From Malacoraja senta (taxonomy: Eukaryota), in assembly GCA_038087875.1 (NCBI GenBank), contig CM075989.1, forward strand, positions 20,400,001 through 20,464,000: DNA of 64,000 nucleotides, given 5' to 3'. The position numbers and the translations under genes are program-made. The notes under the pieces are model-generated. The model ran no database searches, was not told where the DNA came from, and saw only the letters and a list, made by a program, of their open reading frames with translations. This document shows positions 153-28,751 of this stretch, in pieces. The number at the start of each line of letters is the position of its first letter. Position 1 is the first letter of the stretch.

Positions 153-432
153 CTTTAGTTACTAGTTAATCTATTGGAAGACTTCTTCAAAACCTGGATT
201 GGCCATTGTTCATGCATAGCATCCGCTTGAGATTCTTGAGCAATTGCTTCAGGCAATCCATAGTATAAATAAGATCACTCATCTTATTCAATTTATTGAA
301 CAGGTCTTCTAGATCAATTGTTTCTCCCCTACCATACGTTAGTGTGTTTTACTATCACTATCCTCTTGTTTGGGAAATCTGCCAATGAACATGGAAGATC
401 TCATCTCTAAGTGAACATCGTGTACCATGATC

Positions 433-570
433 TTCTTTGACTTTTGTGTGGCGTGCACAGCCTAAAGTTGTTGGACAACTTGTTCTATTTGACCTTCCGT
501 TTGTGCACGTCGAGTTGATTGCATTAGTCGAAACAGGGCAGACCAAGTGAAAGTTGCAATCTTCCACCCC
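433..570 (-). mobile_element. Short non-autonomous retroelement with 5' HDV-like ribozyme (Vingi-type), copy 1
   Basis: 13-bp TSD GTGTACCATGATC at 420-432 and 571-583; GAA-like tail; homologous to 28194-28334. Confidence 0.85.
517..570 (-). ncRNA. HDV-like self-cleaving ribozyme motif
   Basis: Minus strand reads GGGGUGG-AA-GAUUGCA-ACU-UUCACUU-GGU-CUGCCCU-G-U-UUCG-A-C-UAA-UGCAAUC = P1, P2, P3, L3, P3', P1', P1.1, mini-P4, catalytic C, P2'. Confidence 0.8.
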
Positions 571-25883: not shown

Positions 25884-28193
25884 TAAGAATTTCATTGTTC
25901 TATCTGGGACACATGACAATAAAACACTCTTGACTTGACTCTCTTGACTCTTGATTAAGTAGACTTTTGGTACATTGGCCTTCATCAGTCAGGGTATTGA
26001 GTATGGAAGTTGGGATGTTATGTTGCAGTTGGACAAGACGTTGGTAAGGCCACATTTGGAGTATTGTTTAAGAAAGAACTGCAGATGCTGGAAAAATCGA
26101 AGGTAGACAAAAATGCTGGAGAAACTCAGCGGGTGAGGCAGCATCTATGGAGCGAAGGAATAGGTGACGTTTCAGGTCGAGATCCTTCTTCAGACGAGTT
26201 ATGGAAAAGGGAAAACGAGAGATATAGACGATGATGTAGAGAGATAAAGAACAATGAATGAAAGATATGTAAAAAAGTAACAATGATAAAGGAAACAGGC
26301 CATTGTTAGCTGTTTGTTGGGTGAAATGATTCTATTACCTCAGTAACAACACTGAAGGTAGACAAAAATGCTGAAGATTGCTGGAAATGCTTGGAGCATT
26401 GTGTTCAGTTTTGGCCATCCTGCTATTGGAAAGATGTTGTTAAGCTGGAAAGAGTGCAGAGAATATTTGCAAGGATGTTGCCAGGACGAGGCCCTGAACT
26501 TCAGGGAGAGGTTGAGCAAGCCAGGACTCTATTCCGTGGAGTGCAGAGTGATCTTACTGGGGTGTATACAATCATGATGGAGATTGATAGGGTGAATAGA
26601 CAGACTTTTGTCCAGAGCAGGGGTCATAGAACCAGACGACATAGGTTTAAAGATAAAAGGGAAAGAATTAACGGGGATCTTTTGCCACACAGAGGGTAGT
26701 GGGCTTTTGTAACGATTTGCCAGAGGAACTACATGAGCAGGTACTATAACAACATTTAAAAGACATCTGGACAGGTACATAGATAAGAAAGGTTGGAGGG
26801 ATATGGGCCAAATGCAGGCACGTGGGACGAGCATAAATGGGGCATCTTGGTCAGCAAGGGCAAGTTGGGCTGAAGGGCCTGTTTCTGTGCTGCAAGACTC
26901 TATGCTAGTCATTACATCATCGTGGATTATGCATAGCTGCATAACCAAGACTTACTGAACGTTTAAATATGTGCCTTCTCGGTTACTTGACCATCAGGTG
27001 AAGGAAATAAACTTTTCCTGCTTACTGCATGTAGGCCCCTTATTGCTTTAGACTTCATTTACTTTCATAAAATGCTTCCAATCCAAGGAAAACAACCCTA
27101 GTACTTTCCTCATAACTAAGATTTTCCAGTCCCGACAACATCCCCATAAACCTTCTCCAGTATAATCAAATCTTTCCTGTGATGTGGTGATCAGAACTGT
27201 ACTCATTACTCAATCTGTGGCCTAACAAGGGTTGTTTGCATTTCCAACATTAACTCGCCCAGCCCGCTTTTATATCCTATGCCTCATCGAGTAAAAAAAA
27301 AAAGCATCCAAGTATCTTTTTAACATGTGGTTTGTGGATAGGACACTGTTTATCCCAAACTAGAAGTCCTTTCTTTGTACAGCCGAATATTCATTCAACA
27401 GTTCGAATGAAAACATATCCATGCAGTTTAAAGATCTTATCAAGGGGCGTCATGGTGGCGCAGCGGTAGAGTTGCTGCCTTACAGCGCCAGAGACCCGGG
27501 TTCGATCCTGACTACAGGTGCTGTCTGTATGGAGTTTGTACGTTCTCCCCGTGGGTTTCAAGCCAAGCCAAGCCTTGACTGCTGTTGCTGACCAGACCCC
27601 GAGCTGCTGAAGGTTGTACCTTGCAGTCACCTCCACGGAAACTCTAGACAGAACGCCCACTACCACATCCACATCTGGGAGCAATTGGCTTGGGCAGAAG
27701 CTGAGGAAATTCCTTCCGCACCTGGCAATGCACCCAGAATGTGGTCTTCAGAAAGTTGAAATAATTTTTATAAGTTAAACTAGAATTACAATTAAAGTTG
27801 GCAGCAATCCGTCAGCAAGGTATCTGGTAAGCAGTTCAGTTCACAGATACAGCATGGTAACAAGCCCGTCGGCCCACCAAGTCCGTGCCGACCAGCGGAC
27901 CCCGTACGACCACTCTACACTACACTATCCCACACACTTGGGACAATTTACAATTTTACCAAAGCCAATTAACCTACAAACCTGTACATCTTTGGAGTGT
28001 GGAAGGAAACCAGAGCACATGGAGAAAACCCATGCGGTCTCAGGCAGAAGGTACAAATTCCACACAGACAGCACCCGTAGTCAGGATCGAACCTGCGTCC
28101 CTGGCGCTGTAAGGCAGCAATACAGTGCTGCGCCACTGGGCTGCGCCCTTTCACACTAGTTCTATGTTATCCCACTATTTCATCCACTGGGGT

Positions 28194-28247
28194 GGGGTGG
28201 GAGATTGCAACCTTCATGTGGTCCGCCCTGTTTCGACGAATGCAATC
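28194..28247 (+). ncRNA. HDV-like self-cleaving ribozyme motif
   Basis: GGGGUGG-GA-GAUUGCA-ACC-UUCAUGU-GGU-CCGCCCU-G-U-UUCG-A-C-GAA-UGCAAUC; G1-U wobble, 7-bp P1, 7-bp P2, 3-bp P3, CGAA J4/2. Confidence 0.85.
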
Positions 28248-28334
28248 AACCTGGCGTGCACAATCAAGTAAGATCAAACAGAACAAGTTGTCCTACAACT
28301 TTAGGCTGTGCACGCCATACGCAAGAAGAAGAAG
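28194..28334 (+). mobile_element. Short non-autonomous retroelement with 5' HDV-like ribozyme (Vingi-type), copy 2
   Basis: 11-bp TSD ATCCACTGGGG at 28182-28192 and 28335-28345; (GAA)n tail; inserted in an HE1 SINE. Confidence 0.85.
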
Positions 28335-28751
28335 ATCCACTGGGGACAATTTATAGAGACCAATTAACCTACAAACTTTGGGATGTATAAGGAAACTCAC
28401 ATGGTCATCAGGGAGCACGTGCAAACTCCACACAGACAGCACCCGAGGTCAGGATCAAACCTGAACTAGAGTCCCTGGCACTGTGAGGCAGCAGCTCTAC
28501 CAGCTGCGGCACTGTGCCGCCCCCTCTGAGATACTGGTGTGAGACTTGTAATATTGCTCAAGTTCCATGGAGAAAGGCCCTTCAGCCCATCAAGTAGACA
28601 GAACCTTTCTCGTAGGATGGAAATGTCCATCACTAGTGGTGGAGGCAGATACGATAGTGGCGTTAAAGAAGCTTTAGGATAGGAAGTGCAAGGAATGGAG
28701 GGATATGGATCATGTACAGGCAGATGAGATCAGTTTAACTCGGGGGAGCAG

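Follow-up and report, generated by a model that had tools for sequence, protein, structure and literature searches.

The window, the 64-kb stretch of DNA analysed here, carries at 28194..28334 on the plus strand a retroelement of ~140 nt (141) that opens with an HDV-like head, closes with a GAA tail and is flanked by a target-site duplication (TSD; Table 1). The initial annotation had described the helices of this head, a catalytic cytosine at C28237, the GAA tail and an 11-bp TSD, all of which were confirmed, and the element can be regarded as real and well supported by sequence. Its P1 (7 bp counted from G1), P2, 3-bp P3 with a 7-nt L3 and nested helix order are those of an HDV-like ribozyme.

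Table 1. Features of the short element and of a second copy in the window
Feature	Position	Strand	Remarks
Left TSD	28182..28192	+	11 bp
Single T between TSD and G1	28193	+	Extra or mutated; A in the right-hand TSD copy and in uninterrupted host repeats
Predicted HDV-like ribozyme, 54 nt	28194..28247	+	Predicted cut just 5′ of G28194
P1, 5′ strand	28194..28200	+	Partner strand 28223-28229, G1-U included
P2, 5′ strand	28203..28209	+	Partner strand 28241-28247
P3 (3 bp) and 7-nt L3	28210..28222	+	P3 strands 28210-28212/28220-28222
Predicted P1.1 pair	C28215-G28230	+	C28215 lies within L3
Minimal P4/L4, 6 nt, UUCG loop	28231..28236	+	
J4/2, CGAA	28237..28240	+	Predicted catalytic C28237 first
Continuation of partner LINE 5′ UTR	28248..28263	+	
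11-bp inverted repeat, 28252-28262 with 28307-28317	28252..28317	+	Closes the 3′ half into a stem; z −3.9
Middle piece (nt 71-99)	28264..28292	+	Matches to the LINE of only 7-9 nt
Partner LINE 3′ end	28293..28334	+	Last codons, stop at 28302-28304, 3′ UTR, GAA tail
Right TSD	28335..28345	+	11 bp
Second window copy, other subfamily (J4/2 CUAA)	431..570	−	84.5% identical; 12-bp TSD abuts G1 directly

The T at 28193 is a peculiarity of the window copy and not of the family, and together with the TSD it creates a second P1 register 5 nt upstream. L3 of this copy is CpG-decayed, with U at nt 24 (28217) where the family base is C, and its isolated head folds in Vienna, a model that leaves pseudoknots out, into a competing helix (z +1.8). 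The stem between the 5′ and 3′ parts is shorter in the second subfamily, where it comprises 8 bp with z −1.7. No Pfam match was obtained in 40 of the window's 116 frames. The host site belongs to another abundant repeat family of ~300 bp with many copies in the window (27833-28150, 28335-28520), and ~30 nt resembling the middle piece of the element occur in reverse orientation, adjoining LINE body, at a separate locus (L122:~1300-1400).

A strict HDV descriptor matches the window once, at the 28194 copy, and in 305 kb of metagenome loci its matches fall exclusively at element 5′ ends. The predicted pseudoknot fold, as put forward in the initial annotation, has strong support from covariation across Vingi-like families: over 11 aligned heads, 95.3% of cells are paired and 13 of 18 pairs have changed on both sides, a level that none of 500 shuffles reaches and that compares with 41–50% in slid controls. 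The set is made up of single heads representing nine families plus two metagenome elements, with one bulged-P1 family left out; because these heads were chosen and trimmed by fold and are related to one another, the shuffle control is inflated and its figure is not a probability. P1.1 is C-G in 10 of the 11 heads and U-A in one family, and the C that opens J4/2 is present in 94 of 100 family copies and in 10 of the 11 single heads. Active-site features (the C, the AA, G1 and the L3 pattern) are conserved across heads, with the catalytic C and the AA of J4/2 found in every family majority sequence. The preservation of helices that had been anticipated among copies is thus seen as covariation across families, whereas no double-sided change occurs inside the element's own family. 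Common core variants within that family are confined to J1/2, a wobble pair of P1, the loop L4 and the position following the catalytic C, where G, T, A and C all occur. Counts of CpG asymmetry made by eye (5 versus 10 for loss of the catalytic C, 7 versus 16 for the L4 control) indicate that loss of this base is not clearly rarer than control decay.

The chance that these helices are an accidental pattern in an ordinary repeat, a reading to which the missing Rfam match and an MFE fold no better than that of shuffles would lend themselves, is practically negligible. It is refuted, as far as sequence can do so, by the covariation, by the restriction of metagenome matches to element 5′ ends and by the 0 descriptor matches in 60 dinucleotide-shuffled windows.

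The genome-wide search that had been proposed turned up a large family. Exact counts over the whole genome (1.94 Gb) gave 5,571 matches to a 19-nt head motif, 5,104 to an 18-nt tail motif and 5,154 to a 34-place core pattern; exact-match counts are lower bounds, so that the family holds at least 5,571 head matches, and we infer a total of ~10,000 copies. The best 40 of 2,155 candidate copies are 98–100% identical, and the same family is present in contigs of three organisms. The 5′ ends were sampled from the first 30 tail-motif matches in genome order, since lists of best matches would favour full-length copies; copies that have particular bases at three sites further upstream are missed by the tail pattern. 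Twenty-five of these 30 loci start at nt 4 or earlier, and the remainder comprise three truncated copies (at nt 6, 20 and 89), one LINE 3′ end and one unclassified locus. The clustering of 5′ ends at G1, which the initial annotation had named as a check, is borne out by this sample. TSDs in the 21 scored copies measure 8–13 bp with a mode of 11–12, and they abut G1 without a gap in 13 of these copies, while 6 end at +1 and 2 at −1; the earlier statement that the TSD ends one nucleotide before G1 is accurate for the window copy and does not extend to the family. Copies consist of a single HDV-type head on a TSD-flanked monomer with no upstream leader. A retrozyme was rejected on these grounds, there being no hammerhead in tandem or LTR repeats.

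Ends clustered at G1 would also follow from a transcription start site, and the head might act mainly as an internal Pol II promoter with RNA starting near G1, cleavage being secondary or serving to trim upstream starts. Pr77, the head of like type in L1Tc and NARTc, is both promoter and ribozyme (PMC3383444), and the word 'promoter-less' in the initial annotation consequently holds for Pol III only. RNA reads fit this alternative as well, in that one poly(A) run (781 reads, ~6% of the run, from the same or another species) has no pile-up of cleaved ends at G1 and no accumulation of molecule starts at any other place; 297 of the 781 reads continue into the flanks at G1. Strand and library bias make these reads weak evidence, which nevertheless lends cleavage no support. 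A DNA promoter would not, however, keep 18 pairs by compensatory change while its sequence drifts, and it would not conserve the catalytic C and the AA throughout the family majority sequences. A mainly promoter-type head is therefore unlikely, and a promoter role could coexist with the ribozyme reading. Self-cleavage at G1 is predicted from the fold; the NARTc/L1Tc and R2 SIDE ribozymes cleave in vitro (PMC3383444, PMC3414825).

The initial annotation had expected a Vingi LINE as the source of the copying machinery, and a Vingi-like LINE that has both ends in common with the element was found in the same genome. This partner is ~3.1 kb long, with one ORF containing APE and RT and no RNase H match. 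One locus (L181) runs over ~3.1 kb from nt 9 of the head through APE, RT and a CCHC motif to the end, its ORF frameshifted, and another (L091) joins the element's tail to an ORF ending in the CCHC motif; LINEs of the latter type number 802 candidate copies, the best of which are 91–94% identical to L091. None of 96 scored candidates yielded an intact ORF of this family. Short element and LINE correspond over nt 1-70 and over the last 42 nt, and because the two ends match in this way the element is, judged by these matches, a bipartite, internally deleted LINE of the SIDE/NARTc/RIME type and not a SINE. The SINE-like family first proposed thus belongs to an already described class; a SINE was rejected since the element has neither a Pol III promoter nor a tRNA and its head is a LINE 5′ end. 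The reported lack of Pol III boxes itself stands, as the element contains no tRNA and no A box even when one mismatch is allowed, and its sole B-box match, at nt 79, has one mismatch. At least three further independent head–tail deletion families of the same LINE, 120–135 bp long, were identified (L151-L178) in 30 loci inspected out of the 133 whose 5′ UTR is of the LINE type.

Homologues of the LINE protein are ~1,000 aa long and lie on contigs of 3.1–3.5 kb, the best being P0001, which is intact and 72% identical. P0001 scores 206 bits against an I/Nimb ORF2 and 100–129 bits against six ORFs that we take, from their motifs, to be CR1/L2-like; it is without RNase H, which the Nimb control ORF has. 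With APE and RT in a compact single ORF and no RNase H, the partner fits the Vingi description and is best called Vingi-like, a placement that amounts to I-group affinity in the comparison with the I/Nimb and CR1/L2-like ORFs. An RTE- or Ingi-clade partner should be weighed against a Vingi one. RTE elements have a single ORF. They also lack RNase H and yield bipartite derivatives (PMC5786205). Against this, P0001 is nearer to I/Nimb ORF2 than to the CR1/L2-like ORFs in a set that held no RTE, and it is without RNase H, the feature whose absence separates Vingi from Ingi (PMC13708176); we regard the RTE or Ingi assignment as highly improbable. LINEs found with PF14529 were rejected as partners, being two-ORF I/Nimb-like elements without the element's head. 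A young family of such two-ORF I/Nimb-like LINEs was seen with an intact 1,277-aa ORF2 that includes RNase H (L356, G000:C1:39192300-39197800).

The closest counterparts of this arrangement are NARTc and RIME, the short partners of L1Tc and ingi, which consist of the first ~77 nt of a LINE, with an HDV-like ribozyme cutting at +1, and its last ~30 nt, carry a ~12-bp TSD and are inserted at dispersed sites (PMC3383444, PMC6765202). The likeness covers the LINE 5′ ribozyme joined to the LINE 3′ end, the similar TSD and the dispersed insertion, whereas the present element differs from NARTc in its animal host, a Vingi-like partner without RNase H, a length of 141 versus 263 nt, a GAA tail, the near absence of P4 and thousands of copies. 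The R2 SIDEs of Eickbush and Eickbush (2012) likewise combine a 5′ ribozyme with a LINE 3′ end and have no Pol III promoter, and they are mobilised in trans (PMC3414825), as the element probably is; they reside in 28S rDNA and pair a ribozyme of ~180 nt with an RLE protein, in contrast to genome-wide insertion, a 54-nt predicted ribozyme and an APE protein here. Internal deletion of Vingi also underlies the Vingi-1_EE non-autonomous derivatives of the hedgehog (cited in PMC5786205). Minimal HDV-like and theta ribozymes resemble the head in having a P4 of only a few bases, whereas nearly all of them are found in phage, beside tRNAs, and the origin of the minimal form was left open (PMC10879173); the present head is that of a retrotransposon. 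A theta ribozyme was rejected as an identification of the head, there being no tRNA beside the element.

Taken together, it is very probable that the element is an HDV-headed bipartite derivative of a Vingi-type LINE that would cleave itself, be released from host read-through RNA and be mobilised in trans, with a role for the stem between its 5′ and 3′ parts. A host or internal transcript would run across a copy, the predicted ribozyme would cut this RNA just before G1, and the Vingi protein would bind the RNA 3′ end and copy it at a staggered nick, so that each new copy would regain a complete ribozyme. The stem might hold both ends together or keep the 3′ half off the ribozyme. An RNA 5′ end held near the second nick could also explain how head–tail deletions arise. 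In a sample of 30 LINE copies selected through the 3′ end, 5 have an adjoining inverted segment, which in 4 of the 30 is the head itself; these inverted heads stop at nt 5, 7, 19 and 33 and are followed by body, and two more inversions were seen elsewhere. An RNA with its end at G1 would be expected to leave such heads joined to LINE body, and the pattern suggests that this 5′ end is kept close to the second nick. The inverted LINE 5′ ends resemble the inversion pattern named twin priming. Twin-priming-like structures, in which the extreme 5′ end stands inverted beside 3′ body that lies kilobases away in the element, as if primed near the RNA 5′ end, were noted at L128, L131, L143, L150, L153, L156, L159, L161, L166, L179, L328, L332, L336 and L342.

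Second-strand priming near the RNA 5′ end suggests retention of this end at the insertion site and could point to a pseudoknot kept as a binding site for the LINE protein, as a 5′ shield or as a translation aid, with no meaningful cleavage; the R2 ribozyme fold protects the template RNA and is bound by the R2 protein (PMC13708176, PMC6765202). Conservation of the active-site C, AA, G1 and L3 pattern, together with copies that have no upstream leader, argues against this alternative, which we hold to be very unlikely.

HDV-like heads are not limited to the partner family. Four other Vingi-like LINE families in the genome (38–48% protein identity) each have a different HDV-like head right after the TSD wherever the 5′ end is present. 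Among 25 metagenome loci with N-terminal matches, 3 gave strict descriptor hits (2 elements), 2 more were recognised by eye (L186, L193) and 20 were without; no HDV-like head was seen among 8 distant (24–29%) metagenome relatives. Variant heads observed by eye include a large L3 hairpin (L186:~420-570), a short L3 (L193:~290-365) and a bulged P1 (L186, L309). The design would explain why Vingi repeatedly gives rise to short derivatives. It is known from trypanosomes and fly rDNA and appears here in an animal, genome-wide, in thousands of copies, with a 54-nt predicted ribozyme and a Vingi partner. Vingi is absent from the ribozyme-bearing LINEs of a 2018 survey. Since Vingi proteins are under development for gene insertion (PMC13708176), a natural 141-nt template would define minimal cis elements.

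The larger point, which was out of reach of the initial annotation, is the presence of such heads in many Vingi families of this genome and the match of some of them to the CPEB3 ribozyme. The suggested Rfam comparison left the element's own head unmatched (no RF00622 match, and no match of the window-copy head to any model at E up to 10), whereas sister heads match RF00622, the mammalian CPEB3 ribozyme (cut-off 35 bits). With this model the genome yielded 51 matches, 39 of them over cut-off, from 59 scored candidates, against 0 in 14 control genomes; none of the 51 lies on the four contigs with CPEB ZZ exons. Sister heads over cut-off score 35–64 bits (L311, L315 and L321-L350 among the loci), and the head of a full-length, TSD-flanked metagenome element (L213, the same locus as L214; 2606-2689) scores 55.6 bits. 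All 30 matches inspected fall into five families, V5 (12), V6 (5), V7 (4), V8 (3) and V9 (6). V5 heads, reaching 64 bits, open LINEs, and in one of these the ORF, 1,008 aa long, is intact; inverted ORF pieces connect V6 (3 loci), V7 (3 loci) and V8 (1 locus) with Vingi-like ORFs, and V9 is linked to Vingi-like LINEs by likeness of its tail as judged by eye. In a quick protein tree, several rows of which are under half filled, V5, V6, V7 and L213 group together in a single subclade, with an SH-aLRT of 92, to which the element's partner does not belong, so that similarity of heads follows similarity of proteins.

Compared by eye and with the L4 loop set aside, the V6 majority sequence, drawn from five old copies that are 83–88% alike, equals the RF00622 consensus at 57–58 of 63 positions; the match includes the whole P4 stem, P2 shows one compensatory pair, and the first columns rest on three copies. 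Because the stems of these ribozymes can vary freely in sequence, identity of this kind points to common descent. The element's own head has the topology of the CPEB3 ribozyme, a single C-G P1.1, an L3 identical in the family consensus, GU at J1/4 and CGAA at J4/2, whereas its stems differ, and the CPEB3 ribozyme is single-copy and intronic where the element is mobile. The CPEB3 ribozyme likely descends from a Vingi-type head of the sister kind, with the direction of descent and the choice between vertical and horizontal transfer inferred. On balance we think it probable that an HDV-like ribozyme is what Vingi LINEs and their miniatures normally have as their 5′ end and that the CPEB3 ribozyme is such an end, domesticated after landing in a CPEB3 intron of a therian ancestor; the genome would then hold its outgroups, ranging from heads almost identical to it down to the minimal form of 54 nt. 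The CPEB3 ribozyme, which has been linked to memory, was stated to lack known outgroups beyond mammals (PMC8233481), and the sister heads supply outgroups with which its origin becomes testable. HDV-like ribozymes related to that of CPEB3 have turned up in structure-based searches of lamprey, lancelet and sea urchin, and such ribozymes spread by retrotransposition (PMC8256844). Neither a ribozyme in Vingi, nor the present family, nor descent of the CPEB3 ribozyme from Vingi came up in our literature search; parts of this may already be covered by Webb 2009, Webb and Luptak 2011, Ruminski 2011, Kojima 2011, Repbase, Dfam or patents.

Some further structures were noted among the sister families. 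V9 is a second short, TSD-flanked family (~190 bp; L341, L343, L347-L350), with a minimal-P4 head; its tail resembles the one found in LINE family V4. In the V5 LINE copies at L312 and L313 the 5′ end carries the ~26-nt 5′ half of the ribozyme 4–6 times in tandem, an array that repeated template jumping at the end of the RNA may have produced, and the intact 1,008-aa APE-RT ORF behind a CPEB3-like head, at L312:534-3557 on the minus strand, may belong to an active Vingi-like element.
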